From the NCBI GenBank assembly GCA_002898555.1, contig BEHR01000011.1, positions 1,229 to 65,228 of the forward strand: DNA of 64,000 nucleotides, read 5' to 3'. This DNA is from a bacterium HR15 (GTDB lineage: Bacteria; Armatimonadota; Fimbriimonadia; Fimbriimonadales; GBS-DC). Both the position numbers and the translations under genes were made by a program. The notes beneath the pieces were generated by a model. That model was not told the origin of the DNA. It made no database searches and worked only from the letters and a program-made list of their open reading frames with translations. This document shows positions 5,106-61,517 of this stretch, in pieces (positions within the stretch are counted from its first letter, which is position 1; every line of letters starts with the position of its first letter).

Positions 5106-5147
5106 CTGGAGGGGGCGAATGCCTTTATTCCTAACCCCCTCCTCCAG
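5106..5147. terminator. possible bidirectional hairpin between convergent genes
   Basis: CTGGAGGGGG (5106-5115) pairs with CCCCCTCCTCCAG (5135-5147). There is no clear U-tract. Confidence 0.3.
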
Positions 5148-5183
5148 GTTCTCCACTGTAAGCAGGGCGAATCCTGATGTTGG

Positions 5184-6722
5184 TCAAGATGAATCCATTT
5201 CCAGCTCTTTTTTCAGCAGGCGTTTGAGCACCTTGCCTGTGCCGGAGCGGGGCAGTTCTTGTCGGAAAATGACCTCGCGGGGCACCTTGAAGTTTGCCAG
5301 GCGTTCGCGCAGGAAGCGCAATATCTCGCGCGGGTCAGGCTCGGCGTCGGGTTTTGGTACAATCACCGCGACGGGCACTTCGCCACGCTCCGGGTCGGGC
5401 TTGCCAATCACCGCGCAGTCCAGCACCGCCGGATGCTGCAGCAGCACATTTTCCACCTCACTGGGGTAGACATTGATGCCCCCGACGATAATCATGTCCT
5501 TCTTGCGGTCTACAATATAGAGGTAGCCTTCTTCGTCGAACTTGCCCATATCGCCTGTGTGGAACCAGCCGTTGCGCATCGCCTCCGCGGTCGCTTCGGG
5601 ATTGTTGTAGTAGCCGAGCATCACATTGCGCCCGCGCACCACAATCTCGCCAATCTCGCCAGGAGGCAGCTCGCGGTCGTTCTCGTCGAAGATTTTGATC
5701 TCCACGCCGGGAAGTGGGATGCCGACCGAGCCGACTTTGCGCTTGCCCTTATGCGGAGGTGGGTTCACACTGGTGACGGGCGAGCATTCGGTTGGACCGT
5801 CGCCTTCCAAGATGGCGCAGCCGTACTTGGCTTCAAAGGCGCGTTGCACCGGTTCTGGCATCGGGGCACCACCCGACACGCAATATTTGAGCGAACTCAG
5901 GTCATACTCGCGCTCACCAGCCGCCTGCAAAATAGCAGCATACATCGCCGGTACAGCGGGAAAGAGCGTGACGCGATGCTTCTCGATGGCTTCCATCGTG
6001 CTTTGAGGCATGAATCGCTCCAGTAAGATGGTGGTCGCGCCCAGCCACAGCGGAAAGTTCATGCAAACGGTCTGCCCGAACGAATGGAACAAAGGCAGCA
6101 CAGCAAGGAACCGCTCGTCGGGTTCCAGCTCCAGCATCTGCTGGCACGCCTCGATATCGAACAGGATGTTGTCGCTGCTAAGCATCACGCCTTTGGGGAA
6201 GCCCGTCGTGCCGGAAGTGTAGATAAAGACCACCGGGTCATGCTCGCTGACGGGCGCGCGAGGAAGGGGGTCCCCCGAAGGGCGCAAAACCGCATCAAAC
6301 GGTTGTACCCCTTCAGGCAGCTCGCCCTGCGCACCTACCAGCAGCACCGCCTGCAGGCTGGGGATTTCGGGGCGCGCGGTCAGCACCGTTTCCAGCACCA
6401 TCGGAAAGGTGATGGCGGCTTTGATGCCTGCGTCGCGCCAGATATAGGCGATTTCGGGCGCTTTTAATAGCGGATTGACTGGTACAGCAATCGCGCCCAG
6501 GTGCCCCAAGGCGTGGTAGGCAATCACAAATTGTGGTAAGTTGGGTAGCATCAGCCCCACCCGGTCGCCTGCTTGAATGCCCAGCTCATCGCGCAGTCCC
6601 CGGGCGCATGCCTGCACCAACCCCCACAATTGGGCATAAGGGATGGCTTGATCCCGAAAGATGAGCGCGGGCTTCTGTGGAAATCGCTGCGCCGATCGCT
6701 CCACAATCTCGTATAGCAACAT
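5184..6722 (-). CDS. AMP-dependent acyl-CoA synthetase / long-chain fatty acid-CoA ligase
   Basis: AMP-binding motif YTSGTTGFPKGV. C-terminal GEIGEI...GWFHTGD...GKV motifs. Confidence 0.85.
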   Translation of the reverse strand: MLLYEIVERSAQRFPQKPALIFRDQAIPYAQLWGLVQACARGLRDELGIQAGDRVGLMLPNLPQFVIAYHALGHLGAIAVPVNPLLKAPEIAYIWRDAGIKAAITFPMVLETVLTARPEIPSLQAVLLVGAQGELPEGVQPFDAVLRPSGDPLPRAPVSEHDPVVFIYTSGTTGFPKGVMLSSDNILFDIEACQQMLELEPDERFLAVLPLFHSFGQTVCMNFPLWLGATTILLERFMPQSTMEAIEKHRVTLFPAVPAMYAAILQAAGEREYDLSSLKYCVSGGAPMPEPVQRAFEAKYGCAILEGDGPTECSPVTSVNPPPHKGKRKVGSVGIPLPGVEIKIFDENDRELPPGEIGEIVVRGRNVMLGYYNNPEATAEAMRNGWFHTGDMGKFDEEGYLYIVDRKKDMIIVGGINVYPSEVENVLLQHPAVLDCAVIGKPDPERGEVPVAVIVPKPDAEPDPREILRFLRERLANFKVPREVIFRQELPRSGTGKVLKRLLKKELEMDSS

Positions 6723-6858
6723 CGCTTACAACCTCCTCCGCAACTCAATTCGACGACGCGCCATCCCTTCCTGCTGCATCACCAAACGGAGGCGGGACGC
6801 AGTTCTGCGCATGCAGGCACGCAGGAAATGGTGCTGGCGTGCCGAAAGGCATAAGGAA

Positions 6859-7935
6859 ATGAAACGCACAGCCCTTTATGAAGCGCATCGGCGTTTAGGC
6901 GCCCGCATGGTGGAGTTCGCTGGCTGGGAGATGCCCATTCAGTATGAGAGCATTCTGGCGGAGGCGCGTGCTGTGCGCACGCGCTGGGGCGTCTTCGATG
7001 TGAGCCACATGGGACGCGCCCACTTCCGTGGCGAGACCGCTCTCTCCTTGCTTAGCTGGCTTGTGCCCAGCGACCTGCATAAGGTGGGAGACCATCAAGC
7101 ACTCTATACCGTGCTAACCAACGAGCGGGGCGGTGTGGTGGACGACATCATCCTCTATCGAATCGCCCCGGACCACTGGCTTATGGTGTTCAACGCCGCC
7201 AACCATGACAAAGATCTCGCATGGTTCCATCGCTGGCAAACTCGCTTCAGCCCACCGCCCGCTATCGACGACCAGACCGAACAGACCGTGATGCTCGCGG
7301 TGCAGGGACCGCAAGCGACGGCACACCTCATCGCGTTGCTGACGCCAGACCTTGCCGATGTGCCGCGTTTCGGTGCGTTGGCATTCGAATGGCAGGGTAT
7401 CCCCGTATTTGCGGGACGCACCGGCTATACGGGCGAGGACGGTTTTGAGCTAATCGTGCCTGCGGAGGCAGGCGAAACGCTCTGGAATCGGCTGCTTGAG
7501 GCGGGCGCGACACCGTGTGGACTGGGTGCGCGCGATGTGTTGCGCGTGGAGGCAGGGTTGCACCTGTATGGGCATGAGTTGACCGATGAGACGAACCCCA
7601 TCGAAGCAGGGTTGAACTGGCTCGTAAGCGACCGTACCGACTACATCGGAGCAGAAATTATTCAACGCATCAAAGCGGAGGGCCCCACGCGCAAGTTGAT
7701 GGGGATTGTGTTGCAGGAGCGGGGTGTGCCGCGTGAAGGCTATCCCGTGCTGATTGAGGGGCAAGTGGTCGGACATCTGACCAGTGGAGTCTATTCGCCT
7801 ACTTTGGAGCGAGGCATCGGGATGGCGTACCTGCCGAGTGAATACGCAAAGCCCAATACACCCTGCGCCGTCGAGATACGGGGCAGAGCCATACCCGCCC
7901 TGATTACTACACGGCGGTTTCTCAAGCAAAGCTAA
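6859..7935 (+). CDS. gcvT: glycine cleavage system aminomethyltransferase GcvT
   Basis: MKRTALYEAHRRLGARMVEFAGWEMPIQY is the canonical GcvT N-terminus. The ORF extension from 6661 overlaps the divergent gene. Confidence 0.9.
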   Translation: MKRTALYEAHRRLGARMVEFAGWEMPIQYESILAEARAVRTRWGVFDVSHMGRAHFRGETALSLLSWLVPSDLHKVGDHQALYTVLTNERGGVVDDIILYRIAPDHWLMVFNAANHDKDLAWFHRWQTRFSPPPAIDDQTEQTVMLAVQGPQATAHLIALLTPDLADVPRFGALAFEWQGIPVFAGRTGYTGEDGFELIVPAEAGETLWNRLLEAGATPCGLGARDVLRVEAGLHLYGHELTDETNPIEAGLNWLVSDRTDYIGAEIIQRIKAEGPTRKLMGIVLQERGVPREGYPVLIEGQVVGHLTSGVYSPTLERGIGMAYLPSEYAKPNTPCAVEIRGRAIPALITTRRFLKQS

Positions 7936-9022
7936 TCTGGCACCACTCCCTGAGTACCCACTCGATACCGTGCTGTTGTATCCAAGCACGCAGTTGCACC
8001 GATTCGGGGTCGTTCGGGTCGTGATAATGGAGAGCAGCAAGGATGGCTTGGCGGAACGGCTCGCTGTCCTCGCCCTGCGCTTGAAGCAAACGATATGCAC
8101 CTACCAGCCGGTCTTCTGGACGCAGTTTGCGCAACGGCTCCCGTGCCACGCGCGAGACGGGGTCATCCAGTGCGGGATGCTGAATCCGCGCGACGATTTC
8201 CGCAACCGCCTGATGATGCTCTTCGGCATCGAAGGGGAAGGCTTTCAGCAGGGCGCGCTCAAGCGCGATGGCAGCGCGTTCAAACAGAGCGCGAATTGCT
8301 GGGTCATGAAGTGCCTGCTGAATAGTGGTATAGCCCTTCTGTGCGCCCAGATAAGCTACGAGCGCGTGCAGCCCGTTATGCACATAGAGCTTGCGCAGGA
8401 AGTAGATTTCGAAGGGGCGCACAGGCAGAAGCCCATCGATAGGCGGCAGTTCGCCACGAACGGCGTCTGCGTCGATAAGCAGGCGGTCATAGCGGTCGGC
8501 ACGCACGCCAGGTGGGTCGCCGGGCAACTCCGCCACCACCTGCCGTCCCACCACGCAACGCACCAGCCCCACTGCCCCCAACAGCGCTGCCATCTCAGAT
8601 CCGTCTGACTGGGCAGAAAGCAATGCCTCCCGGAGCACCTGGTCGGCATGCAGGTCGTTCTCGCCCAGCAGAATGTTGAAGGGGAGTTTGTGCTGGTCGG
8701 CGCGTTGGCGCAATCCTTCCGCGAGCAGGGGCGCAACCGAGGGCAGAGCATTCACCCCCACAGCGGTCGCCGCGATGACTGCCTGCACACATGCCTCCGC
8801 CACTGCCGCTTGCTCATCGGTGTGCAGAGCGCGCACAGGGGCAATTATCTCGCGTCCACCATCCACCCACTCAATCCAGCAGGCGCGGTGTTGCTGCAGA
8901 CTACAAACCAGCCCCGGGCGAGCTTCTACGAACACAACCTCCAGCCCGGCACGGGTAAAGAGTTGGGCAAAAAGCCCACGCCCAATCTTGCCCGCGCCGA
9001 ACTGGAGGGCTATGGCTCGCAT
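7922..9022 (-). CDS. mannitol dehydrogenase family protein (mannitol-1-phosphate 5-dehydrogenase-like)
   Basis: FGAGKIGRG N-terminal motif. RKLYVHNGLHALVAYLG and DDPVSRVAREPLRKLRPEDRL are collinear with MtlD. Confidence 0.7.
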   Translation of the reverse strand: MRAIALQFGAGKIGRGLFAQLFTRAGLEVVFVEARPGLVCSLQQHRACWIEWVDGGREIIAPVRALHTDEQAAVAEACVQAVIAATAVGVNALPSVAPLLAEGLRQRADQHKLPFNILLGENDLHADQVLREALLSAQSDGSEMAALLGAVGLVRCVVGRQVVAELPGDPPGVRADRYDRLLIDADAVRGELPPIDGLLPVRPFEIYFLRKLYVHNGLHALVAYLGAQKGYTTIQQALHDPAIRALFERAAIALERALLKAFPFDAEEHHQAVAEIVARIQHPALDDPVSRVAREPLRKLRPEDRLVGAYRLLQAQGEDSEPFRQAILAALHYHDPNDPESVQLRAWIQQHGIEWVLREWCQISFA

Positions 9023-12744: not shown

Positions 12745-14574
12745 TTAAGATTCGACACGCAGGCGCCAATATTCCTGCCACTTTTGAGGATCAGGGGGCT
12801 GGTCGCCGCGCGTGAGTTCGTTCAAGATTTGCAGACGGCGGGCGCGTTCTTTGCGTTTATGGAGATACGCTAAACACTCCGCTACCACTGTGAGTGAGAG
12901 GGGTGGTTCCGTCTGCAGCATCAGGCTGGTAAGTAATGCCTGCTGGGTTTCGTCCGAAAGAGCGTTCAACAGGTCGCGTTCCGCATATCGATAGGGGGGC
13001 TGTGGCAGCTGCTGAATCGTGTGTGCCAGGGCTCTATGTTCCGGCAGGCTCCATTCGATATGGGGCAGCTGTTCCATCGCAAGCGCTGCCGTTTCAGGAG
13101 ACAAGACTGCTCGCAGGATAGTGCGCTCGGCATCCACCACGGCGCGGGGTAGCTGCACCGAGAAAGAGGCAGGGGGGACATCCTGCTCTGTGGTGGCTTC
13201 GTTTGGGCGATGGGTTTCGGTTTGTCGGGAGGCGCGTGCTCCAAGAGGGCGGCTACCCTCGCGCTGAAGACGACGCACATCACGCAGCAACGCCTCCATC
13301 GCCGCTTGGGGGCTGGTCAGGTAAGCAGGGCTGAGTGGGGCTAATCGCTCCAGACAAGCGGTCTGCTCTACGGGACTGCGCAGCTGGGCGACAAATCGCA
13401 GCGCGTCGTGCAACAGGCGCGTGCGAGCAGGCAGGTCCAGCGATTCCACGCGATCGACACCCGCCTGCATCAGATGTTCTCGTATCATCTGCTCCAGTCC
13501 AAAGAAGGCAGCGGGGCGTGCCGTGTCCAGTGCCTGCTCCAAGGCTTCCACGCCCATTTTTTGCAGCAGGCTATCGGGATCCTCGCCTGCGGGCAGCTCC
13601 ACAATCAGCGCGGGGATGCCCGCTGCACCCAACACCTCGGCGGCACGCAGCGCGGCACGAACACCGGCATTATCCGCGTCGTACAGCAAATAGACGCGCT
13701 CCACGATTCGGCGCAGTCGTGCCGCGTGCTGTTCCGTGAACGCAGTGCCCAGCGTCGCCACCGCATGCTCAAAGCCGAACTGGTGCAACCTAATCAGGTC
13801 CATATAGCCTTCCACCACGATGGCGCTCTGTTGTCGCACGATGGCGCTGCGTGCCAGATGCCAGCCGTAGAGGGTGCTGCGCTTTTCGAACAGGGGTGTC
13901 TCGGGTGTATTGAGATATTTGGGTTCTTCGTTGCCCAAAGTGCGCCCCCCAAATGCAATCACTCGCCCTGATGGGTCGTGGATGGGGAACACGATGCGGT
14001 CACGCAAGTAGTCGTAGTATCCATGTTCGCCCTGCCGAATCAGCCCCGCGTTCAGCGCGTCTTCCGTCGTGATGCGATGCTTTTGCAGGAACCGCAGCAG
14101 GTAGTCCCAACCATCCGGCGCATAACCCAACTGGAACCGTTCGATGATTTCGGGGGTTAGCCCGCGCTGTTGCAGGTACTGACGCGCTCGCGCAGCGCGT
14201 TGTAGGCACTGGCGGTAATAGAAGTGGGCAGCGAACACGGCGCGACGCCATCGATCGCGTTCATCCTGCCCTTCTTGATCGGGCGATGGTTCTCGCAATT
14301 CGACGCCCGCACGCTCCGCCAGGCGGTGCAACGCATCGCGAAAGGAAATCCCTTCGATACGCATCAGGAACGCAAAGGCGTCGCCCGAGGCGCCGCAGCC
14401 AAAGCAGTGGAAACGGTTCAGGCTCGGGCTGACATAGAACGAGGGGGTGCGCTCCGTGTGGAAAGGACATAGCCCTTTGAAGTTGCTGCCCGCTCGTTCC
14501 AGTCGCACATAGCCCGAAACCAGTTCCACCAGATCGATGCGCTCACGGATTTCCTCACGCAGGTTGCGCGTCAC
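12745..14574 (-). CDS. dnaG: DNA primase DnaG
   Basis: Zinc finger CPFHTERTPSFYVSPSLNRFHCFGCGASGD and TOPRIM region IVVEGYMD...YLLYDADNAG. Classic dnaG-rpoD linkage. Confidence 0.92.
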   Translation of the reverse strand: MTRNLREEIRERIDLVELVSGYVRLERAGSNFKGLCPFHTERTPSFYVSPSLNRFHCFGCGASGDAFAFLMRIEGISFRDALHRLAERAGVELREPSPDQEGQDERDRWRRAVFAAHFYYRQCLQRAARARQYLQQRGLTPEIIERFQLGYAPDGWDYLLRFLQKHRITTEDALNAGLIRQGEHGYYDYLRDRIVFPIHDPSGRVIAFGGRTLGNEEPKYLNTPETPLFEKRSTLYGWHLARSAIVRQQSAIVVEGYMDLIRLHQFGFEHAVATLGTAFTEQHAARLRRIVERVYLLYDADNAGVRAALRAAEVLGAAGIPALIVELPAGEDPDSLLQKMGVEALEQALDTARPAAFFGLEQMIREHLMQAGVDRVESLDLPARTRLLHDALRFVAQLRSPVEQTACLERLAPLSPAYLTSPQAAMEALLRDVRRLQREGSRPLGARASRQTETHRPNEATTEQDVPPASFSVQLPRAVVDAERTILRAVLSPETAALAMEQLPHIEWSLPEHRALAHTIQQLPQPPYRYAERDLLNALSDETQQALLTSLMLQTEPPLSLTVVAECLAYLHKRKERARRLQILNELTRGDQPPDPQKWQEYWRLRVES

Positions 14575-47653: not shown

Positions 47654-50053
47654 TTATTGACCCCCGCCCGAAGCGCCGTTAATTGCCCATTGCCCCCCTG
47701 AAGGTATGCTGGCTATCCACTTTAGCGAGTCCTCAACAAGGGCATACTCACTCCATATCCCCCCTTTTTGTTCCTTCCGCCTCTCAACGGAAGGTGGTAA
47801 TTGTGTCATGGCAATTGCCACAAACTCGAGCCCTTCGGATTCCAGCATAAGATGCATTTGCGAACTTCTCCTTCCATCCAGCCGTTCCAGAGCCTCGTGC
47901 AACGGGGGAGAGCGGCGTTTTGGATAGAGCATGGATTTCCCACGCAGATCATCCCATCCGAGCAGAGGCTCACGCTTGCCATTTGCTGTATCACACTGGT
48001 ATACCTGCACCCAACAAGGTTGGTTTGCAAATACGGTAAGGATGATATTTTTATCTCTTAAAGGAACAATTTTTACATAAACCTTAAGTTTCCCACCTTG
48101 CTCGAAAAGCGGAAGTGCATTTAAGCTATTCAACAAAGCAAGCCAGTGTCTAATTCGCTCGCTCCGGTCGTCGGATTGGTTATCAGGAGGGTGAGGAGTG
48201 GGCGTGGGAGGAGGGCTGGAGGAGCTTGTCTTAAGGGGTTTCAGCAGCGCATCTATTCTGAGTTGTCCTCCTGCTCGAACTGACCGGTGTGTCTCATAGT
48301 TTTCATAACCATCCAATTTGAGTAAAATGGCGACCTCTTTCTTTCCGGAGGGCAACTCATGGAAGCCCTCATAGGGTGTCACGCCCACTGCCTGACCATC
48401 CAAGTAAACAGTAGCTCCAGGGGGCTTGCTGGATACTGATAGGCTGTATTCAGGTCGATATGGTACTGGTCTCCCCAGTTTCACTGGTGGTGGAGGTAGA
48501 CCCGATCTCACCTTGGCACGCCCGGAACTCTGATGACCACGAATATCGGAGCGTGCAATAATTTCTAAGGTTGCCTCACTGCCCTTTTCCACTTGTCCCG
48601 TCAAGTCAAAGGATACTATAGGCTGTGTTGGATGTCCTCCCGAAAGGGAAACCTTTTTAGGTCCCTCCTTACAGGGCGCTCCATTGATTCTGGCTTCAAC
48701 CGTAACCTCGGTATCTTCTTTTGGCCATCCTGCAGGTAAATGCACAGGAACCTCAAGCCTTTCTCTGCGTGGAATCGTGACAATGACCAGCGGAGGAACC
48801 ACTCCTGGTTCCGCTGGGTCTACCATCCAGTTGGGGTCTACCTGAAGCTGCTCTAAGTCATAGGGCTTTAATTTTGCGGACACATGCCCCGTTTGATCTC
48901 GTTTTGGGTCGGGTTCTATCTTAAGACTGAGGGGCAGGGCGGTCCACAAAAATCGTAAACCCCTTTTTTCCCACGGCCATCGCTTGTAGAATTCTACGCC
49001 CGTGCGTGTCCCATCAGTGTAGAGGCGATACAAACATGGATATGGGCGCTTAATACCTTTGGTATCGGTTATCTCTACTGTAACCTTTAAATCACGCGGC
49101 ATCAGTCCAGGAGGCAATTGTCCCTCCGGTAAGCCTTCGAAATGCAGGCGTATACGTGCCTCAGGGCGATAAATAGGGGGGAAACCAAATAGAATCCCTA
49201 TAAGTAGCATTAGAACCACACCCGCAATTATCCAATCTGGCCACCAAGTTTTTAGAAAAGGCATAGGCACTATATGAATATGTCGCTCCATTTGACGCCG
49301 AATGCGCTCGCCATTGGCACGCACGGTTGCCTCCACTACGGGCAGCACACGCAAAGGCTCTTGCAAGCGTTGCTCCAGTGGCATTCGGCATACAACGCTC
49401 TGCCGCTGCCATCCATCTAGCCTCCCCATGTCCAGCACTTGCTCCCCACCGTCATCTAAGGGGAGCGGCTTGCCTTTATTATCTAGAATGTTCAGTCGAA
49501 GTTGAGCGTCGACAGGCAAATAGCTGTGATTTGTAACAGAAACCTCTATTCGCACTGTTCGATGCCATGGACGAGCTAATACAATTTTCGGATGGACATC
49601 TATCTTAATCGATTGAGCATTGACCGGTGGCACGAGCTGATACTCTTTGAGGAAATAAATCTCTCCTTGCCCTGTAGTATCGGGGATCCAATATTCCGTT
49701 ACAACGATCTCGAAGGGGCAAGGGGTAGTGCGTGGATGTTCGGGATCACTTACCAAGAGAAGAGTGAAACCACGACTCTCGTTGCTGCCCAACTCGATCA
49801 ATTCATCAGTGCTTACTACTTCGAGGTTGGAGTAAAGTGAGTATTCAGTAGGGTATAGATTCGTAACAACGACTTGATACCATCGTGGATAGTTTGTGCT
49901 ATTGGAAATAGAAAACTCGATACACTGCCCTGGCAGAACTATATACTCGCTTGACTCCTCCACAGCAAGCGAGCCATGCCGCGCCTCACCTTCTGGTGAT
50001 GGTGGTCTTAGAGTTTGATGTTCCCGAACAACCCACTGCGCTTTCCCGAACAT
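47654..50053 (-). CDS. single-pass membrane protein (799 aa): beta-rich cytoplasmic N-domain, one TM, PEGA domain, P/S/T linker, DUF4384-like C-terminus
   Basis: TM WWPDWIIAGVVLMLLIGILFGF. PEGA-like SSKPPGATVYLDGQAVGVTPYEG...LKLDGYENYE. Linker SSSSPPPTPTPHPP. Last gene of the low-GC operon. Confidence 0.7.
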   Translation of the reverse strand: MFGKAQWVVREHQTLRPPSPEGEARHGSLAVEESSEYIVLPGQCIEFSISNSTNYPRWYQVVVTNLYPTEYSLYSNLEVVSTDELIELGSNESRGFTLLLVSDPEHPRTTPCPFEIVVTEYWIPDTTGQGEIYFLKEYQLVPPVNAQSIKIDVHPKIVLARPWHRTVRIEVSVTNHSYLPVDAQLRLNILDNKGKPLPLDDGGEQVLDMGRLDGWQRQSVVCRMPLEQRLQEPLRVLPVVEATVRANGERIRRQMERHIHIVPMPFLKTWWPDWIIAGVVLMLLIGILFGFPPIYRPEARIRLHFEGLPEGQLPPGLMPRDLKVTVEITDTKGIKRPYPCLYRLYTDGTRTGVEFYKRWPWEKRGLRFLWTALPLSLKIEPDPKRDQTGHVSAKLKPYDLEQLQVDPNWMVDPAEPGVVPPLVIVTIPRRERLEVPVHLPAGWPKEDTEVTVEARINGAPCKEGPKKVSLSGGHPTQPIVSFDLTGQVEKGSEATLEIIARSDIRGHQSSGRAKVRSGLPPPPVKLGRPVPYRPEYSLSVSSKPPGATVYLDGQAVGVTPYEGFHELPSGKKEVAILLKLDGYENYETHRSVRAGGQLRIDALLKPLKTSSSSPPPTPTPHPPDNQSDDRSERIRHWLALLNSLNALPLFEQGGKLKVYVKIVPLRDKNIILTVFANQPCWVQVYQCDTANGKREPLLGWDDLRGKSMLYPKRRSPPLHEALERLDGRRSSQMHLMLESEGLEFVAIAMTQLPPSVERRKEQKGGIWSEYALVEDSLKWIASIPSGGQWAINGASGGGQ

Positions 50054-50111
50054 GGCTTATCCCCAAAGATATAGGTTATCATACCCTAAAGATATCTTCC
50101 ACCAATTGCGC

Positions 50112-50591
50112 TCAGGGCTGCAACACAACGGGATAGTATTGTTTATTCCCACGCGTCCCTCTCAACATTTGCTCGATAATTATCTTGCTGGCTGACGGTG
50201 TGAGATTGTTTTCGGCGGGAAATCTTTCTTTCAGCCATTGCATAAATTGTTTCGTCTCCATCCAAGTGACCCGTATCTGCGTATCATTACCGGATAGTCG
50301 ACGATCACGGCTAAAAGTCAGTTCCATAGTCGTACCCACGGGGCGTGTGAGTTGACAGCCAGTGCCGGTTGCCACAGGTTCCCACGGCTGAGAGCCAACT
50401 TGAACAAGATAGGCTTTTATAGGAGCGCCTTCTGGCGTGAATGTATGAAAGATTAAAGTAATATCTGCTGGATGGGGGGAAGGGGATTTTGGTACTTGCA
50501 AGCCCAGCCAAAGCGCAACGCCGAATACAAACAGCCAAACCACCAAAAACCACCATGAAAAGCAGCGTAGGGGGGCAGGCAAACGGTTCAT
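50112..50591 (-). CDS. N-terminally anchored small membrane protein (159 aa), unknown function
   Basis: ATG preceded by GGAGGG. TM FSWWFLVVWLFVFGVALWLGL. Lies 15 nt downstream of the preceding gene. Confidence 0.65.
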   Translation of the reverse strand: MNRLPAPLRCFSWWFLVVWLFVFGVALWLGLQVPKSPSPHPADITLIFHTFTPEGAPIKAYLVQVGSQPWEPVATGTGCQLTRPVGTTMELTFSRDRRLSGNDTQIRVTWMETKQFMQWLKERFPAENNLTPSASKIIIEQMLRGTRGNKQYYPVVLQP

Positions 50592-50606
50592 CCAAACCCT
50601 CCTTTT

Positions 50607-51710
50607 CTACTTAGCTTTGCCCACACAGTTCGGACACCGACCAGGGTCAACCTGACCTGGGCGAACTGTGTAGTACGCATTGCAGGAACATTTCCGAATT
50701 ATCAAAGAACCCTGAGAGGAGACCGGCGTCACGGGTATGAACCCAGGACTGGGTTCAGGTCTTTCGTAAGGCTGTTCTGGTTCACGCAACTCTCCATAGA
50801 GAGGAATAAGAGCTTCCATGGCTTTTTGTACGTGGTCGAGTGCGTCCCATATTTGCAACTGGGCTTCGGCACGATGCTTAATGTAGCTAATAGCGTTTTC
50901 GATTTGATCCTTTGCAGGTACCCAGCTGGCGAGCGGTGGTTGTAGGTTGGCTAATGGTAAAATCAGTTGAAAGAGAGAGACCAGCATCTCGGTCAGGCGA
51001 TTAAGCCAATCCCGTAGGTAGATCTGCCAGTCACTTATTATTGAAGCAGGGGCAAGCGCGGCAGCCATGTTCGCTGCGATTAGATGAGAAAAACCGCACC
51101 CAGACCTCGCATATTGCCCCAAAATTTGCTGTGAAGCTTGGGCAGTTTGTAGAATGGTCTTCACCTTATTGACCAGAAGCGGATGGCTATTCAAATAGAC
51201 CGACTCCGGGATATACTGATTGTCCACAACAAATCGCGCTCCCTCCTTGCGCATCTGCCCAATCTGGAGCCTGTCGTAAGCGTTCGCACTGGGTTCTGTT
51301 GTCAAGGCATAGGCCCAGCGAAGGGAACGAGCTTCCAGCAAGACAGTACTCTGAGCAGTTGTGGTTGGTACCGATTCCTTACCCCGAACCTCCAGGTAAA
51401 TCGGTACAATCGACTCTCGGTGCTGATCATTACTTCCCCTCAAGGGAGCCGGGCGGTTTGACTCGTTTACCTCTATTAGGTAACCTTGAGGACTTATTGC
51501 CCGGCATGCTTGCAGTACAATCTCATAATCGGAAGGCGACCCAGAAACGATTAGATCACCCTCTCGCATTGCGAGGACTCCCCGAGGATATGTGCTGGAA
51601 AGAACCCAGCGTATTAGCTCCTCCATATAGGCTGTCTCGCCAAATAGATGGTCAGCGTGCAGAAGCTGCACGCTGCTCCAGTCGACCGATGTAAGCTTGA
51701 ACCATGTCAA
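50607..51710 (-). CDS. TssK-like (baseplate shoulder-domain-like) protein with C-terminal CxC...CxxC zinc ribbon
   Basis: TTG start preceded by AGGAGGTG. The N-terminus VDWSSVQLLHADHLFGETAY...YPRGVLAM...LQACRAISPQGYLIEV parallels the TssK pattern W.EG.FL.PQHFQ...WGV...RFPDGTLID. C-terminus KCSCNAYYTVRPGQVDPGRCPNC. Family call is a by-eye inference. Confidence 0.5.
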   Translation of the reverse strand: MTWFKLTSVDWSSVQLLHADHLFGETAYMEELIRWVLSSTYPRGVLAMREGDLIVSGSPSDYEIVLQACRAISPQGYLIEVNESNRPAPLRGSNDQHRESIVPIYLEVRGKESVPTTTAQSTVLLEARSLRWAYALTTEPSANAYDRLQIGQMRKEGARFVVDNQYIPESVYLNSHPLLVNKVKTILQTAQASQQILGQYARSGCGFSHLIAANMAAALAPASIISDWQIYLRDWLNRLTEMLVSLFQLILPLANLQPPLASWVPAKDQIENAISYIKHRAEAQLQIWDALDHVQKAMEALIPLYGELREPEQPYERPEPSPGFIPVTPVSSQGSLIIRKCSCNAYYTVRPGQVDPGRCPNCVGKAK

Positions 51711-51774
51711 AGCATGTCACCTCCTGCATTCCACACTGCTGTGTTCTCTTTATCAGGCGTATCCCGATCATCGG

Positions 51775-53442
51775 TTATTGTACCCCCTCCAATATATCGC
51801 CCATTATGGGCGAACCACCGGCCAAGCGTGCCAAAGGCGTTTCAGCCCACTCTGCTCCATAACCCTGCGCCTCTTGGGCAAGATAGGCGGTTTCGCCAAG
51901 GATCGCCCAGTCCACTAACCATCTATAGCATATCGGCAAATGCACAGGAACAAAAAGACATGCCAAAACTTCGAGTTTCTTTTCAATCACCTCGATCCAC
52001 TCTGACGGCTGAGTGCGATCCATCGGGATATAAACTACCACTTGCGGTGAATGCAGCAGAGGGATCATGCTAACAAAAAGTGTCTGCCCGACTTGGGCAA
52101 GCGTTGTACCTAACCTACTGGGAGCAGGAGCCAGAGGTTCAATACGCACCTGGATATCGCGATGCACCAGCAGGCGTAATGCAGTCTGAAAAAGAGCGAA
52201 CCAGTCTATCAGGTGTCGCCGAAGAAGAATAAGCATTTCCAACACCACTTTTTCTTCAGGTAGAAAAAAGTTCATCGATTCCTGCTTGATACCCAAAAAA
52301 GCGTCATTATGCCACCAACTTCGCATCAGGTGTATTAAAGCGCCGCTCAGATTAAGCCCTTCGAAGATGCTACATTGTGAGGGATAAAAAGGGATATATT
52401 CTGGCAGGTAGCGGCGTACAAGTGCAAGTACCTCGTCGGGCGTCAGGTCCTCAGTACGCCCTGCCTCATACTGTTGACGAATAGCTTTGTAGACCTCCTG
52501 GACAGCTGGGTCTTGTGCTGTCCATAAAGTTTGCTCTGCTTGAGTCGGATCTCCTTGTTCATTATCTCTCGTGATGCTATCCCCCTGGCGTGGTATCCCT
52601 CTGCTTCCTTTGCCGTAGTTGAGAAATGATAATGGACGATGTGGGTAGAGATGAAGCCATTGCACCACATCCTCAACGCGGGATTGAGCACCCAAAGTCA
52701 CCGGGATGTGTCTTCCTTCGGGTTCAAAGGGAAAGAAGAATTCACAGCCCCCAAGCAGATCGGTCATGGCAACGAATAAAAAAGCGTTGGTAAAGATAAG
52801 CTCGGCAAATTCCTGTGCTAAGCGCGAATATAGAGATTCTTCTGTAAGATCTTCAGTTTCATAAAAATAAATATCTTCTTTGGATAGTTCCATAACATGT
52901 CCGTGTCGAATGAAAAGCAAGCGATCATGTGGTCGCTCGTTAGGAGGCGATGATTCGCCAAGATCGGGATACTGCTCATAGAGCTGTCGCATAAGGCACT
53001 CGACGGGAGTCTCCGCTGTGGAGAAATCCGCATGTCCTGTATGGCGATGTATATACTGCTCCCGATACCAACTTAGCATGGAAACACCAAAAGGCTTGTC
53101 TCCTTTAAGCCGTGCCAACGCTACTTCTGTGGGAGGCATGCCAAGCATGACAAGAGAGATAAAAGGAGCTAAGCGATTGTCCACCCGAACATTGACCCCT
53201 AAACGAATACGTAGATCTTTTAAACTCTGCTCAACTAAACTCTGCTTAACAAAATTGTCCACGCTCTCGCACAAGAGGTCACGATAGGGCAGGATTTCAC
53301 GGTGTGCTGGATGTCCGATAACAGGCAGGAGACGCACACCCGTCGCAGGTACCCCCATATCTGTAAGCACCTGCACCACATGCGCAAGCGAGGCGGGACC
53401 ATTCCACGAGGAGAAAGACGGTATGCGAAAGACTTTAATCAT
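51775..53442 (-). CDS. hypothetical cytoplasmic protein (555 aa), no family recognised
   Basis: ATG preceded by AAGGTGA. No TM or signal. Sits between the TssF-like and TssK-like genes. Confidence 0.6.
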   Translation of the reverse strand: MIKVFRIPSFSSWNGPASLAHVVQVLTDMGVPATGVRLLPVIGHPAHREILPYRDLLCESVDNFVKQSLVEQSLKDLRIRLGVNVRVDNRLAPFISLVMLGMPPTEVALARLKGDKPFGVSMLSWYREQYIHRHTGHADFSTAETPVECLMRQLYEQYPDLGESSPPNERPHDRLLFIRHGHVMELSKEDIYFYETEDLTEESLYSRLAQEFAELIFTNAFLFVAMTDLLGGCEFFFPFEPEGRHIPVTLGAQSRVEDVVQWLHLYPHRPLSFLNYGKGSRGIPRQGDSITRDNEQGDPTQAEQTLWTAQDPAVQEVYKAIRQQYEAGRTEDLTPDEVLALVRRYLPEYIPFYPSQCSIFEGLNLSGALIHLMRSWWHNDAFLGIKQESMNFFLPEEKVVLEMLILLRRHLIDWFALFQTALRLLVHRDIQVRIEPLAPAPSRLGTTLAQVGQTLFVSMIPLLHSPQVVVYIPMDRTQPSEWIEVIEKKLEVLACLFVPVHLPICYRWLVDWAILGETAYLAQEAQGYGAEWAETPLARLAGGSPIMGDILEGVQ

Positions 53443-53464
53443 TTTTTCACCTTCTTATAAATGA

Positions 53465-55090
53465 TCAAATCCTGGTCAGGCATCCCTCCACTTGATACCA
53501 CCCAATCATGAAATATTGGGCAATGATCGAGGCGGCATAACGCGTTGCGTCCTCCAGTAAGAAACGAGGTACATCCATGCGTCTGGGGTAAAAAACAAGG
53601 CGCATCTTGGGCATAATGGCACACCGCGAACGGGCCAGATAACCCGCACGCATCTCTAATAAGATCGTGTCACCAATCAAAGATGGATAGAGATAAGTCT
53701 CCCACACAGTTCGCTCTTCCCATGGAGCAGCTGCCACATCCAGTTGGATTGCAGTTTGATCAATATCAAACCACAATCGGCATGAAGATAAATGAGACAA
53801 TATTTCTTTTATATCACCCTCTGTCAGTAATGTAGGGCGAAAAATAGTGTGATACCAATAGTAGCGTGCGGCGTTATTATCAGGCTGACTCATTAGCAAA
53901 CTCATGCCACCTACTGCAGGCAAAGGTGTGCGGAAACGCTGCCCACCAGGACGAATGAGGTATTCAGGATGCAAGCGTCCAGGAACAGGATTTTCACCTA
54001 AGCAGGCATAATAGACCTTGATCTCGGAAACCGTTTGATCGCATATTATATCAACATCATATGGACAGCTCTCAGGCGATGATGTTCCCTCAAAGGTAGT
54101 TGCATGGGTACGAACGAAGCGTACGCGATGAATAACATCACCTGTGCGAGCAATAGCGGCAAAAAAGTTGGTTATCCCCGCAAAGCTAACTTTGTATGCA
54201 TCCCCCACGGCATGGAGGGTTGCTACCACGGGGTGATGGAGCACTCCCATCTGTGCCACAGGAATCGCGTTAATCACAAGTGGAGGCTGCACACTGTTAG
54301 AGGCCACGCGATCAGCGAGGGTTTGATCAATCAGTGCCGCAAGACGAATGAATTCATCGCTAATCCCGAGCCATTCCCACTCAGCGGAATCCGTTATGGA
54401 TGAGGAAGGAGACGGTTGATAAAAACGAAGAAACTTTCGAGAATAGGGATGGAAAGGGGGTAGCCAAGCCGCCAGATGCCATTGGGAAAGGCGGGCTACC
54501 CCCATCTCACGCTCAAATTCCAGATACCCCGTATAACGTTCCACCTTAACTACCTCAAACGATCGCCCAGGATACTGAATCGCCCACCTCGCATTCGCTA
54601 ATAAAGCGACGAGTGGCTCATCTCCCCAGACAAAGGCGAGTAATCCATTCTCCGAGAAGAGCGTTGCAATGTCCGATTCGCGGCTCTCGCACCGGAGGAT
54701 TAACACTAAAGCAACTTGCCCCTCCGTTGACCGCGTGAGTGTCCACTCGACAAGTTCTAAAGGCAGTGTCCAGCCATATCCACAGGGTGTCCAAAAAGTT
54801 CCTGTAAACGGATCCGTAAAGGTTGTTCCCATCGTAATCTCGCGATAGCGTGGTTCCTGGGGCACAGCAATTGTTTGCGCGGGAAAATGCCACTCCCCTG
54901 AAGGGAAAAACTGTTCCATAAAGCGAAGCAGCGTTCTTTGCTCTGCCTCAGCAATCTGTTCAGCAATCGCTGTCTTCCAAGCAGCGAGCATTCCTAAAAA
55001 AGGAGCATATTTGCTTATTTCTGACTCCACTCGCTGACGCACTGTTGGATCCATCTGATCCAATATCTCTTTCTCGTCGTATCTGTTCAC
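53465..55090 (-). CDS. TssF-like (gp6-like baseplate wedge) protein
   Basis: GTG start preceded by GGAGG. DPTVRQRVES resembles TssF DPHVERLIES, and RTLLRFMEQFFPSGEWHFPAQTIAVPQEP resembles TssF LLGQLFPDYHAPIPSMSIVQFE. The size is compatible (541 aa). By-eye inference. Confidence 0.45.
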   Translation of the reverse strand: MNRYDEKEILDQMDPTVRQRVESEISKYAPFLGMLAAWKTAIAEQIAEAEQRTLLRFMEQFFPSGEWHFPAQTIAVPQEPRYREITMGTTFTDPFTGTFWTPCGYGWTLPLELVEWTLTRSTEGQVALVLILRCESRESDIATLFSENGLLAFVWGDEPLVALLANARWAIQYPGRSFEVVKVERYTGYLEFEREMGVARLSQWHLAAWLPPFHPYSRKFLRFYQPSPSSSITDSAEWEWLGISDEFIRLAALIDQTLADRVASNSVQPPLVINAIPVAQMGVLHHPVVATLHAVGDAYKVSFAGITNFFAAIARTGDVIHRVRFVRTHATTFEGTSSPESCPYDVDIICDQTVSEIKVYYACLGENPVPGRLHPEYLIRPGGQRFRTPLPAVGGMSLLMSQPDNNAARYYWYHTIFRPTLLTEGDIKEILSHLSSCRLWFDIDQTAIQLDVAAAPWEERTVWETYLYPSLIGDTILLEMRAGYLARSRCAIMPKMRLVFYPRRMDVPRFLLEDATRYAASIIAQYFMIGWYQVEGCLTRI

Positions 55091-55192
55091 CGTCTGCCTC
55101 CGTTAGCGAATAATCTTTAGAAGCTTTGCCCACCAGATTCCGACTTTGAGTCGCCTATTTCCCATTATACCTGCGAATACTCTATTCCCAGT

Positions 55193-55650
55193 CTAAGTGG
55201 GGGTGAGTAGGGTCTGCAGCCAATCACGGAGTTGTCTCGCTTGTGTTCCTATGCCACCTGCTGTGCATCCAAGGGTTGTGCCTGGGGGAACCCAAAGGGT
55301 TGTCGGTTGGAGCACCTCCCGATAGAGTCGTCCCATTGCGAGAAAGATTTCACCATAGGGTATGGTTTCCATACGCCTTTGGAGGGCTGCTATCACCCGA
55401 GGCGACAGCTGTTGCGCACGCGCTCGATCCATCTTGCGGTTATAGTACGGGATGGGTGTGGCAGCTTCTATTAGACCAAATTCTGACGAGAGCAGAAGAA
55501 TGTCCACGGACCGAACTTGCGCTGGCGATGCTTGCTGCAACCATCGACGCACGATGCGATAGAATACCCATCACAGCGCTCTATCGCGGGTAGCAGACCC
55601 GCGTCCACGCGCTTCTGTGCGGAGCATGCCAGTATCAGCAGATGCTTCAT
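55193..55650 (-). pseudogene. DUF6884-like gene interrupted by a frameshift near 55567-55569
   Basis: ATG 55650 preceded by GGAGG. MKHLLILACSAQKR...LPAIERCDG (frame A) continues sensibly only in another frame as (V)FYRIVRRWLQQ...DILLLSSEFGLIEAATPIPYYNRKM. A G3 run lies at the junction. Confidence 0.55.
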
Positions 55651-55728
55651 TGCAATACCTCCTCGAGCGCAACACGAGCAGTTATTTCGGGAGCGAATGG
55701 TCCGCCACCGAGTAGACTTTGACAATGG

Positions 55729-56613
55729 CTAACGAACAATCTCACAGGACCATGGGACGGTGATTTCCGTACGACCTGCCTTTAATATAAGCCTGCCCTG
55801 AAACTTACCAGTTGCTTTGGGGGCAGGAATGAACTCAACACCCAGGATAAGGGTATTTTGCTGTCGATCAATGGAGCGTACCAGAAACTGTCCAGCCATC
55901 GTATGAGGATTGACCAGCTGCACTTTCGTATATTGATCGGCAATATAATTAGAGTCAAAAATAATTTTTAGATATCTAATAACCCGTTTTTCTTTTGAAA
56001 TGATTCCCAACCCCAGTGATGAAGGCAAGGTTTGTACAGGGCTGCATGGCTCTATATTGACATTGATTGTTTTTATTATACTATCTTTAAGTTTTACTAT
56101 AATTTTTCCATATCTAAAAGTTTTATATTTAATTACTTTGATTTTCAAAGCTCTCGATTTTCGATCGATACTCAAAATTATTCCTGGTATATTCGATAAA
56201 ATTCTTATATCGTTCAAATCAATTGAATTGCAGAAATTAAAAAAGAGTATATTTTTATGATCACATTTTATGTGAAGATAATTGGGCGCATTGAGCAAGC
56301 AATTTATCTGTTTACCGGAAAGTTTAGCAACCAAGATAGCTTTCTTTTGATTATCAGTTTCAACTTCGACCCAGAAGGTGTCCTGAATGGGCTTTTCCTG
56401 TATTCCCTCCCAATGTGGTGGTAAATCGAGGCGCGCTTTTACATGGAGCGTTCCACCAGGAGGTACGATTCGAGGAGCATAGCTATAAGTTGCCTGCGTA
56501 TTTGGTAAAGGTGCCACATGGCCTGGGTTCATAGTCACATACAGAGCCAGGGGCTGGACGGCATCGTGGATACCGGACACGGTTCGACACAAACTCCTCA
56601 CAAATCGTGCCAC
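55729..56613 (-). CDS. beta-rich (Ig-like/DUF1573-like?) protein with an extremely AT-rich central coding segment
   Basis: ORF of 294 aa. An alternative start at ATG 56532 is possible. It overlaps the upstream Cys-rich ORF by 50-131 nt. C-terminus GKFQGRLILKAGRTEITVPWSCEIV. Confidence 0.5.
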   Translation of the reverse strand: MARFVRSLCRTVSGIHDAVQPLALYVTMNPGHVAPLPNTQATYSYAPRIVPPGGTLHVKARLDLPPHWEGIQEKPIQDTFWVEVETDNQKKAILVAKLSGKQINCLLNAPNYLHIKCDHKNILFFNFCNSIDLNDIRILSNIPGIILSIDRKSRALKIKVIKYKTFRYGKIIVKLKDSIIKTINVNIEPCSPVQTLPSSLGLGIISKEKRVIRYLKIIFDSNYIADQYTKVQLVNPHTMAGQFLVRSIDRQQNTLILGVEFIPAPKATGKFQGRLILKAGRTEITVPWSCEIVR

Positions 56614-56899
56614 AGAAAGTAACTCTACCTATTCTAATACATCCAGAAAAGCACCGGCAAGGGATATCTTGGCAGCTCGCTATAAGCCAAGGCGTGCATT
56701 TCTGATCGTTGACTCGGATAGGATTTGGCTTAGTGGCACATGGTTTGACAGACGCAACAACTACTTCATCGGGCGCTGTTGCCAGGCCACAAGCGTCTTT
56801 CTCAGAGGATATACCTACGCCAATTGGCACCCAACTGAGCAGGATGCCGACTACAACCCTCAAGCCAATGCTCCAGCACGACAAACCGATTTTGCGCAT
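56483..56899 (-). CDS. small exported/anchored Cys-rich protein (139 aa)
   Basis: ATG 56899 preceded by GGAGGTGG. Hydrophobic N-terminus LSCWSIGLRVVVGILLSWVPIGVG. At least 14 Cys residues. Confidence 0.55.
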   Translation of the reverse strand: MRKIGLSCWSIGLRVVVGILLSWVPIGVGISSEKDACGLATAPDEVVVASVKPCATKPNPIRVNDQKCTPWLIASCQDIPCRCFSGCIRIGRVTFCGTICEEFVSNRVRYPRCRPAPGSVCDYEPRPCGTFTKYAGNL

Positions 56900-57007
56900 C
56901 TTTTGTCCACCTCCATTTAAAAATAACGCTCCCATCGTTCCTTTGGGGACATCATAGTACCATCTCCGAGTGGATGCTTACTTTTTTCTGCCAATGCTCC
57001 CGCATAA

Positions 57008-57544
57008 CTACGAGCAACTCTCTGTCTGTAGAGGATAGACCACCGCCGAAATTACCCCCCCACTTTGTACCCAGTTCTGGAGTTTCTTGATGGCTCGCTG
57101 ACAAGTCTTCTTGACATTCTCTTTAGAGTGGCCATCGCCTATCTGTCGCGCGATGACGGAAAACGATAGGCCTTCCAAGTAATGAAGTATCACAATCAAT
57201 CGCTCTCGCTCCGAAAGCCGAGCAAGTGCTTGCTCCAGCATCAAACGCTGCTCTACCTGCTCATAGCCCATCTCGTCCATGGCGTATTCTGTACCCAGCT
57301 CCTCCAGCGACACCGTGGCAGGTTTGCGTTTGCGACGGCGCAGATAGTCGTTTTTTACACTTTGACAGACACGGTGAAGGTAGGCACGTGTAACTGCTTG
57401 CTGGCGTTGCTGACAGCGCAATAGGCGCAGCAGGACATCTTGGATCATGTCCTCTATGCAGTTAGCATCCCGTTCATGTTGCAGGAACCAACGCCGTGCT
57501 TCATTATACCATTCGCTTTCTTTAAGCAAGTCACGCTCCTCCAT
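57008..57544 (-). CDS. ECF-type sigma-70 family RNA polymerase sigma factor
   Basis: Region 2 (IQDVLLRLLRC...YLHRVCQSVKNDYLRRR) and region 4 (LSERERLIVILHYLEGLSFSVIARQIG...VKKTCQRAIKKL). The ORF extension to 57820 is just translation of the palindromic repeat. Confidence 0.8.
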   Translation of the reverse strand: MEERDLLKESEWYNEARRWFLQHERDANCIEDMIQDVLLRLLRCQQRQQAVTRAYLHRVCQSVKNDYLRRRKRKPATVSLEELGTEYAMDEMGYEQVEQRLMLEQALARLSERERLIVILHYLEGLSFSVIARQIGDGHSKENVKKTCQRAIKKLQNWVQSGGVISAVVYPLQTESCS

Positions 57545-57671
57545 GGCGCGCTCCTCCTCAAAAAGAGGATTCGCCTTGCTCGAGGCGATTCCTGCATGGT
57601 GTGTGGTTGCTTCATGCCATAATAAAAGGGGCGTGATGGGATGAGACTGCCCGCAACGCCGCCCGATGCTG

Positions 57672-57826
57672 CAGAATTTGCTTCTTCGGGGTAGCCCAAA
57701 ATTTTTTCTCTGGGGTACTCCAAAATTTTCTTCTCCGGGGTACCCATCTGGGTCGGAGAAGAAAATTTTGAGCGCAGCGGGGTCAGAGAAAAAATTTTGC
57801 CGTCTGACTCGGAGAAGCAAATTCTG
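57672..57826. repeat. full three-level nested palindromic repeat (copy 4) between the ECF sigma gene and ppdK
   Basis: Perfect stems 57672-57685/57813-57826 (14 bp), 57697-57712/57784-57799 (16 bp) and 57721-57737/57754-57770 (17 bp). A GGGTACCC palindrome sits at the apex. Confidence 0.9.
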
Positions 57827-57841
57827 GAGGAGGTTGGAAGA

Positions 57842-60668: not shown

Positions 60669-61517
60669 ATGAACGAGGAAATTACCGCTGAGCTGAGTGT
60701 GGAGCAGCTGCAGCCCGTGCCTGCCGAGCCGTTGCGTGTGTTACCTATCGTGAAGTTCGTCGCCCGCAGCGAAATCGGCAAGGTGCGCGAGAACAACGAG
60801 GACAAGTTCGACTTCTACGAGCCAGACGAACCTGAGCGACTGGCTGCACGCGGCAGCGTCTACCTGGTGTGCGATGGCATGGGCGGACACGAGGCAGGGC
60901 AAATCGCCAGCGAACTGGCGTCGAAGCTGTTTTTGCACCACTATTATCACAGTGACGGCACGCCCCAAGAGGCGGCGGAGCGTGCCGTGCTGCACGCCCA
61001 CAGCTACATCCAGCGGATGGGACAAACCATCCCTTCCCGCCGCGATATGGGCACGACGCTCACCGCCCTCATCCTGCGTCAGGAGGAAGGGATTTTGGTG
61101 CATGTGGGCGATAGCCGATGCTACCGTATGCGCAACGGCGAACTTCAGCAACTCACACGCGACCATACGCTCGTGCAGGAGTGGGTGAGGCAGGGTCTGC
61201 TGACGCCCGAAGCCGCCCGTTATCATCCCTACAGCAGCGTCATTACGCAGGCGATTGGCGTGGAGGGCGAGCAGGGGCCGCTCAAACCCGATATCGAAAC
61301 TTTCGCCCTGCAGGAGGGCGACCTCTTCCTGCTCTGTTCCGACGGCTTGACCGACATGCTGGAGGACACCGAAATCGCCGAAATTCTGCGTACCCACTCG
61401 CCCACGCACGCCGCGTGGACACTGGTCGACCGCGCCTTAGCCGAAGGTGGGCGGGACAACATCACCGTGGTGCTGGTGCAGATTCGCGAACTCAGGCGTG
61501 TGGCGAGCAGTGAGTAG
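60669..61517 (+). CDS. PP2C-family serine/threonine protein phosphatase
   Basis: RENNEDKF, VCDGMGGHEAG, GTTLTAL, SDGLTD and DNITVV motifs. Confidence 0.88.
   Translation: MNEEITAELSVEQLQPVPAEPLRVLPIVKFVARSEIGKVRENNEDKFDFYEPDEPERLAARGSVYLVCDGMGGHEAGQIASELASKLFLHHYYHSDGTPQEAAERAVLHAHSYIQRMGQTIPSRRDMGTTLTALILRQEEGILVHVGDSRCYRMRNGELQQLTRDHTLVQEWVRQGLLTPEAARYHPYSSVITQAIGVEGEQGPLKPDIETFALQEGDLFLLCSDGLTDMLEDTEIAEILRTHSPTHAAWTLVDRALAEGGRDNITVVLVQIRELRRVASSE

Follow-up and report, generated by a model that had tools for sequence, protein, structure and literature searches.

The window analysed here, a 64,000-nucleotide stretch of contig BEHR01000011.1 from the hot-spring bacterium HR15 (Armatimonadota), contains a block of nine to ten co-directional open reading frames (ORFs) on the minus strand (47654-57544). 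The five genes in the downstream part of this block (47654-55090) are the subject of this report, as candidate components of an injection system related to type VI secretion systems (T6SS). From upstream to downstream, they are:

53465..55090, minus strand: 541-amino acid (aa) TssF-like baseplate wedge protein, family F1 (HRbin15_01128), assigned by fold match
51775..53442, minus strand: 555-aa protein, family F0, placed by synteny at the position of TssG, with the TssF-like gene on one side and the TssK-like gene on the other
50607..51710, minus strand: 367-aa TssK-like baseplate protein with shoulder and neck, and a C-terminal CxC...CxxC zinc ribbon replacing the TssK head
50112..50591, minus strand: 159-aa bitopic membrane protein with a predicted N-terminal transmembrane (TM) segment at residues 15-33, putative membrane-complex subunit in the F9 position
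47654..50053, minus strand: 799-aa bitopic membrane protein, family F3, putative baseplate envelope anchor, from its PEGA domain and TM prediction

An earlier sequence-only reading of this DNA had called the first and third of these proteins TssF-like and TssK-like by eye, and both calls proved correct. The 541-aa protein had no sequence match in Pfam, NCBIfam or the PDB, and profile-profile comparison with TssF gave an E value of 0.067; it is only through the fold that a TssF was found. An AlphaFold2 (AF2) model of the protein, with a predicted local distance difference test score (pLDDT) of 83.8 and a predicted template modelling score (pTM) of 0.83, matched the TssF chains 6n38_H and 6n38_I when compared with the PDB using Foldseek (E 7.5e-14 and 7.5e-13, probability 1.00, TM-score about 0.42). 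These chains are the two TssF copies of the TssK-TssF-TssG complex 6N38. Weaker matches included the phage P1 baseplate, AlgoCIS (7aeb_G), 6giy_A, and AFP. Judged from this model, the 541-aa protein has a TssF fold. The F1 family to which it belongs is small (23 clusters among 5.8 billion proteins) and almost limited to Armatimonadota: 19 loci were found among GTDB representatives, in Chthonomonadaceae, Abditibacteriales, Armatimonadales, and Capsulimonadaceae, and 2.9 million viral contigs gave no relative.

The 367-aa protein matched the TssK model TIGR03353 over residues 9-255, corresponding to model positions 3-256 of 429 (E 2.7e-12), with a score of 46.5 bits that is far under the equivalog cut-off of 100 bits. 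The Pfam model T6SS_VasE scored 24.8 bits, which passes its cut-off of 23.4. A profile of the TssK-like family aligned with a TssK profile built from eight annotated loci of canonical type i systems (T6SSi) at a probability of 95.3% (hhalign, E 2e-8, 191 columns). By these comparisons the protein can be regarded as a genuine, distant homologue of TssK, with the homology confined to the N-terminal shoulder and neck. The zinc ribbon, which occupies the C-terminal 30 residues, was seen only in HR15 and in L027 (gene at 13331-14464), the locus closest to the one in the window; other lineages have an acidic or proline-rich tail.

Between these two genes lies that of the 555-aa protein, for which no sequence match to any family or PDB chain was found. 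Its AF2 model was poor (pLDDT 48.7), and the best fold match, the baseplate of the Streptomyces coelicolor contractile injection system (CIS; 9gtp_A, E 0.33), is not usable. When the family was compared by hhalign with 10 T6SS profiles, TssG ranked first, at a non-significant E of 0.12. The F0 gene adjoins the TssF-like gene in every related locus that has it, and follows it also in a distant locus, L041 (F0 hidden Markov model (HMM) E 8e-9). F0 thus travels with TssF beyond Armatimonadota, like TssG in canonical systems, and the 555-aa protein is a putative TssG equivalent.

The two remaining proteins have a predicted single-TM topology that fits the membrane-anchor role proposed for them in the sequence-only reading, which had also noted the PEGA domain of the larger one. 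The 799-aa protein consists of an N-terminal domain of about 270 residues, a TM segment (residues 274-292), and an exported C-terminal part with a proline-rich linker and the PEGA domain (residues 536-606; Pfam E 4e-12). Homologues were found by tblastn in 19 related loci, with distant matches mainly in the N-terminal third and the TM segment. F3 proteins range from about 790 to 940 aa and vary in their C-terminal domains, which are PEGA in HR15 and fn3 in other lineages. The 159-aa protein is 60% identical to its L027 orthologue, and most related loci encode an N-terminally anchored protein of about 150-217 aa at the same position. Its link to F9 is one of position and topology, as the hhalign match (E 0.0064) covers the TM segment. 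Both proteins would serve as anchors.

The order of the five genes, TssF-like, F0, TssK-like, 159-aa, and F3, is kept in about 25 loci (L003-L027), nearly all from Armatimonadota, so that the 541/555/367-aa triad named in the sequence-only reading is conserved as a cluster in other genomes; the extracytoplasmic function (ECF) sigma factor, whose co-occurrence with the triad that reading had suggested checking, has no homologue in the related loci. In HR15 none of the five core ORFs is disrupted, and their identity to the L027 counterparts is 52-60%; L027 likewise has an isolated five-gene core. In most relatives the core is part of a larger contiguous cluster; its usual order, in at least 13 loci of Armatimonadales and Capsulimonadaceae, is F7-F4-F6-TssF-F0-TssK-F9-F3-VgrG-DcrB, in which nine genes, from F7 to VgrG, are conserved. 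In these relatives F7 is about 215 aa long with a C-terminal TM segment (tail-anchored), F4 about 845 aa, and F6 about 147 aa, and VgrG is assigned by the Pfam domains Phage_GPD and Phage_base_V. Alongside the clusters lie DcrB genes and genes for PAAR, DUF4123, CesT, Tsi6, SseB, and deaminase or WHH toxins, the latter being kinds of effector, adaptor, and immunity gene that are usual in T6SS. A further contig with a typical Armatimonadales nine-gene cluster, L024 (JBPBQB010000014.1), comes from a metagenome-assembled genome labelled Janthinobacterium lividum and is probably misbinned.

Other genes recur beside the clusters. Caspase-like Peptidase_C14 genes, some with DUF4384, lie next to the five-gene core in three lineages (L003 18799-21674; L009 17548-19620; L027 5831-9725). 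In L003 (8150-9910), the gene between those for VgrG and the TssF-like protein encodes a Ser/Thr kinase joined to an FGE-sulfatase domain, and a gene of the same family occupies the same position in L009 (8016-9890). L041 has a kinase/FHA/PP2C trio (5128-8764). These kinase genes recall the control of the Pseudomonas H1-T6SS by threonine phosphorylation.

The sequence-only reading had described an assembly with no sheath, tube, or spike. Within the 64-kb window this holds: tblastn found no homologue of VgrG, the tube-like F6, F4, or F7 outside the cluster. For the system as a whole it does not, as relatives place VgrG, F6, and F4 by the core, and a search with the F4 profile located an F4 protein of HR15 itself, the 860-aa HRbin15_02381 (P0091), on another contig of 29.9 kb. 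Loci with an F4 that is 77-78% identical to that of HR15 have the order Hsp70, F7, short J-domain protein, F4, F6, and VgrG, with HMM support for F7 (E 5e-21), F6 (E 4e-52), and VgrG (E 1e-236); genes for peptidoglycan-binding, DUF4123, CesT, and DcrB proteins come after VgrG. By synteny, the HR15 F4 should belong to such an Hsp70-F7-DnaJ-F4-F6-VgrG locus. The presence of F4 on another HR15 contig, together with the F7-F4-F6-VgrG locus of relatives, thus points to a system split in two, of which the window has one half, and not to an assembly that lacks a spike.

Several properties of F4 and F6 point to a sheath and a tube. F4 has no TM segment, and its gene is always found directly upstream of those for the tube-like protein and VgrG. 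Sheath followed by tube is the usual gene order. In every pair of loci compared, no other protein is as well conserved as F4 and F6 (for example, 84% and 80% identity, vs 54-69% for the others), as would be expected of polymerising sheath and tube proteins. F6 shows weak, recurring Pfam matches to T4 gp19 (10 of 20 members, best E 0.0087) and to Hcp/TssD (8 of 20). The best hhalign matches of F4 were to TssB in an N-terminal segment and to the conserved core motif of P2-type sheaths in a C-terminal segment, each non-significant at an E of about 0.03, and both scores exceeded those of 30/30 column-shuffled decoys. F4 had no sequence match in Pfam, NCBIfam, or the PDB, distant relatives included; Pfam searches of 33 close and 66 distant members gave no recurring family, and profile searches of PDB chains gave only helical-repeat noise for F4 and nothing for F6. 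The hhalign profiles were shallow (5-9 sequences for T6SSi and the P2 sheath, along with single Escherichia coli sequences) and detected only TssK, missing the true TssF relationship. On the same profiles, true homologues scored no better, with TssC against the phage sheath at E 0.49 and the TssF-like family against TssF at E 0.067, so negative hhalign results carry little weight. On balance, we lean towards F4 being the sheath.

The F4 family is large and reaches distant loci: 1.84 billion representatives (50% clustering), searched at E <= 1e-3, contain at least 258 members. L040 (39% GC) encodes F4-like, F6-like, and VgrG-like proteins and a weakly TssF-like one, together with OmpA and Hsp70. 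In L041 (59% GC), the order is PAAR, F4-like, two small proteins, VgrG, TssF-like (E 2.7e-10), and F0-like, adjoined by genes for a Ser/Thr kinase, an FHA protein, PP2C, and Hsp70/GrpE. In loci of the HR15 clade, Hsp70 and 174-aa J-domain genes bracket F7 directly upstream of F4-F6-VgrG (L028 6857-9869; L030 5868-8888; L031 301-3321), and Hsp70 genes also lie beside the distant F4-type clusters (L040 16295-17375; L041 2217-4752, with GrpE in L041). The Hsp70/J-protein pair might replace ClpV; equally, it might be a housekeeping dnaK operon.

The most likely explanation is that the five-gene core of HR15 (47654-55090) encodes the baseplate wedge and envelope anchor of a highly divergent T6SS-like injection system that is characteristic of Armatimonadota and is split over two loci in HR15. 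The TssF-like, 555-aa, and TssK-like proteins would form the wedge, with VgrG as the hub. In place of TssJ/L/M, the 159-aa and 799-aa proteins, with F7 encoded elsewhere, would tie this baseplate to the envelope, the conserved N-terminal domain of the 799-aa protein lying in the cytoplasm and its PEGA-bearing C-terminal part being exported. The likeness of F7 to TssL is one of tail-anchored topology, and hhalign comparisons with TssE, TssA, TssJ, and TssL profiles were not significant. F6 would polymerise into a tube inside a sheath of F4, the sole sheath candidate, and contraction would deliver VgrG- or PAAR-bound toxins, with DcrB- and Tsi6-type genes providing immunity. A broader proposal is more tentative, at slightly less than an even chance: the clusters could represent an undescribed F4-type class of type VI-like systems, reaching beyond Armatimonadota, in which the F4 sheath, the tube, the TssG equivalent, and the membrane complex have diverged past sequence recognition, ClpV, TssE, and TssA are lacking, and the Hsp70/J pair might act in recycling.

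Some points weigh against the explanation favoured here. Sequence searches of Pfam, NCBIfam, and the PDB recognised no sheath, TssE/gp25, TssA, ClpV, or TssJ/L/M in any locus, and the link of F4 to sheaths, at an hhalign E of about 0.03, is not statistically significant. The 555-aa protein has no detectable similarity to TssG and could not be folded by AF2. In HR15 itself only F4 was seen, the second locus with F6 and VgrG being deduced from relatives. Finally, all members come from metagenome-assembled or uncultured genomes.

The missing sheath genes could also mean that there is no sheath. Such a device would not contract: its TssF/TssK baseplate, anchored in the membrane, would carry VgrG as the spike along with a short tube, and F4 would be a scaffold, tape measure, or cap. 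This alternative extends to all members of the family what the sequence-only reading had proposed for one locus. No locus has a recognisable TssB/C, phage sheath, gp25/TssE initiator, or ClpV recycler, and F4 matches no sheath significantly, as this alternative would have it. However, the F4 gene lies where a sheath gene usually does, with the tube-like gene and VgrG next in order, no protein of the system is better conserved, and F4 lacks a TM segment; its best weak matches, to TssB and the P2 sheath core motif, stand above 30 decoys, and the negative result for F4 weighs little on profiles where true homologues score no better. A sheath-less device thus appears unlikely. Less likely again is that the locus in the window is a non-functional leftover, orphaned by the loss of spike, tube, and sheath genes from a T6SS-like cluster. 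While the 64-kb window lacks VgrG, F4, F6, and F7, the composition of the island is atypical, and an adjacent DUF6884-like gene is frameshifted, the five core ORFs are full length, and the same isolated arrangement is kept in L027 at 52-60% aa identity, which argues for selection. HR15 also keeps F4 elsewhere, and its relatives keep the complementary F7-F4-F6-VgrG locus.

Lastly, the TssF fold is common to phage gp6-type and extracellular contractile injection system (eCIS) baseplate proteins, and P1, AlgoCIS, and AFP stand lower in the Foldseek list, so a prophage tail, a tailocin, or an eCIS could be considered rather than a cell-anchored system. The leading fold match, T6SS TssF, was ahead by nine orders of magnitude, however, TssK is characteristic of T6SS, and two membrane anchors are encoded inside the cluster. 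No locus has a capsid, terminase, tape-measure, tail-fibre, or Pfam-detectable sheath gene, and T6SS-type DUF4123, PAAR, and Tsi6 genes adjoin. With the Foldseek ranking of TssF and the lack of F1 relatives in viral contigs, the prophage, tailocin, and eCIS assignments were rejected as highly improbable.

Compared with canonical T6SSi (Sci-1 of enteroaggregative E. coli; TssKFGE wedge, PDB 6N38/6GIY), the system is alike in its TssF fold and TssK homologue, in the wedge-type order of F, G-position, and K, and in its dedicated membrane proteins for anchoring. Relatives of HR15 also share with T6SSi a VgrG carrying gp27/gp5 domains, a tube-like protein, PAAR, a DUF4123 adaptor, and toxin and immunity genes. 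It differs in that TssB/C, TssE, TssA, ClpV, and TssJ/L/M are not detectable; the protein in the TssG position is 555 aa long and unrecognisable, TssK has no C-terminal head and, in the HR15 clade, ends in a zinc ribbon, and TssF is invisible to sequence profiles. In addition, two or three unrelated bitopic or tail-anchored proteins would form the membrane complex, and the HR15 system lies in two loci.

T6SSiii of Bacteroidota keeps the phage-like core, with TssJLM replaced by a TssN/O/P/Q/R membrane complex (PMC10781749). This replacement is the nearest conceptual precedent for the anchors proposed here, and the weak F6 matches include the Bacteroidota-type Hcp (Pfam TssD). In contrast, T6SSiii has Pfam-recognisable TssB, TssC, TssE, TssF, TssG, and ClpV, none of which is recognisable here. 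Proteins of the TssN-R type were not found in Pfam or NCBIfam scans of the window proteins, among which no dedicated TssN-R search was made. T6SSiv of Amoebophilus asiaticus and eCIS-like CIS anchored in the cytoplasm or at thylakoids are similar in being divergent and cell-internal, with unconventional anchors and no ClpV. They belong, however, to the eCIS/Afp lineage, with a Pfam-detectable sheath, gp25, a tape measure, tail-fibre-like proteins, and no TssK, while the present system has TssK and VgrG/PAAR/DUF4123 loading.

To our knowledge, T6SS classification comprises four subtypes, all defined by recognisable TssB/C sheaths. In open-access papers, no description of an Armatimonadota T6SS, a new T6SS subtype, or this gene set was found, in agreement with the remark in the sequence-only reading that no system of this composition had been described. 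Little work has been done on the phylum Armatimonadota, whose members are common in soils, hot springs, and lichens. If the proposal is true, a fifth T6SS lineage would extend contact-dependent toxin delivery to this phylum, with only TssK visible by sequence and TssF by fold, and would reveal the extent to which the baseplate-spike module tolerates rebuilding around new membrane anchors. F4, a large uncharacterised family, would be either a new kind of sheath or evidence of a sheath-independent mechanism. The division of the HR15 system over two loci is also a caution for genome scans, in that the absence of sheath, tube, and spike genes at one locus says little about the genome as a whole.

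The remainder of the block, upstream of the core, and the adjoining intergenic region contain the following features:

57008..57544, minus strand: ECF-type sigma factor with 178 aa, counted from the ATG at 57544 (TIGR02937 E 2.2e-20; Sigma70_r2 and r4_2)
56483..56935, minus strand: Cys-rich exported protein of 150 aa, with a predicted signal-anchor at residues 16-34, HR15-specific
55729..56613, minus strand: 294-aa protein, HR15-specific, overlapping the Cys-rich ORF, with the lowest G+C content (GC) of the island (40%; GC at third codon positions, GC3, 0.37)
55193..55725, minus strand: frameshifted DUF6884-like gene, two frames of one gene (pseudogene or assembly error)
57669..57829, between the sigma gene and ppdK: repeat array of three direct and three inverted units of about 25 nt (repeat families D1-D3; inverted pairs I1 and I3-I5)

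The order of the ORFs from 57544 down to 47654, their strand, and the gaps between them (15-102 nt) agree with the sequence-only reading, as do the sigma factor and the two frames of the DUF6884-like gene. Its description of an ECF-sigma-led operon of ten genes did not hold: tblastn across about 30 related loci turned up no homologue of the sigma, Cys-rich, 294-aa, and DUF6884-like genes, only the other five genes being conserved, and promoter and terminator scans of the block gave nothing above shuffled sequence, which leaves the one-operon status of the ten ORFs unconfirmed. As they have no homologues in the related loci, these four genes are best seen as lineage-specific cargo of a low-GC island, outside the machine. 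Searches of all window proteins in Pfam, NCBIfam, PHROGs, and PADLOC found nothing beyond the sigma factor, PEGA, TssK, and DUF6884, and none of these databases gave a match for the Cys-rich and 294-aa proteins. An anti-sigma role for the Cys-rich protein was considered and rejected on account of its having almost no cytoplasmic N-terminal segment before the TM segment. The DUF6884-like gene, whose N-terminal 'MKHLLILACSAQKR...' is encoded in a different frame, matched Pfam DUF6884 (E 5.5e-6; 27 bits, under the 30-bit cut-off), PHROG 5935 (E 4e-6), and PADLOC PDC-M57A (E 9e-5). PDC-M57A is a candidate defence family of PADLOC, and the gene is probably unrelated mobile or defence cargo.

The island has a GC of 49.1%, vs 59.3% for the rest of the window, and GC3 is 0.46-0.51 in the core genes vs 0.68-0.72 in the flanking genes. 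The clear compositional deviation proposed in the sequence-only reading is thereby borne out, as is its estimate of 25-30% GC for 56040-56290, computed as 25.5%. Its further claim, that the island was horizontally acquired, is plausible in view of this composition. No integrase or transposase was found among the cluster proteins; the neighbours checked were the immediate flanks, which carry housekeeping genes (M1 peptidase, a xylose-isomerase-like protein, ppdK, PP2C, miaA, and dapF), with no tRNA or whole-window mobility-gene scan made. The GC of the system is equally low in the related genomes L027, L028, and L030, which suggests either an older acquisition in the lineage or a constraint on composition. 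Several independent assemblies of the HR15 clade show each half of the system at about 8-12 GC points under its flanks (window 47654-57544; L027 10000-17545; the F4-VgrG region of L028 and L030). Unlike in this clade, cluster GC agrees with flank GC in other Armatimonadota.

Among the flanking genes, a stand-alone PP2C phosphatase gene (60669-61517), downstream of ppdK, encodes a protein that shares 29% identity with the PP2C encoded next to the L041 cluster. A regulatory role for it was rejected, as it sits among housekeeping genes, and the link to L041 is probably coincidental. The nested palindromic repeat reported at the right edge of the block is real and spans 57669-57829; copies of a CAAAATTTTCTTCTCCGGGGTACCC-like unit jointly make up the palindrome, and the array may be a set of binding sites for divergent promoters.

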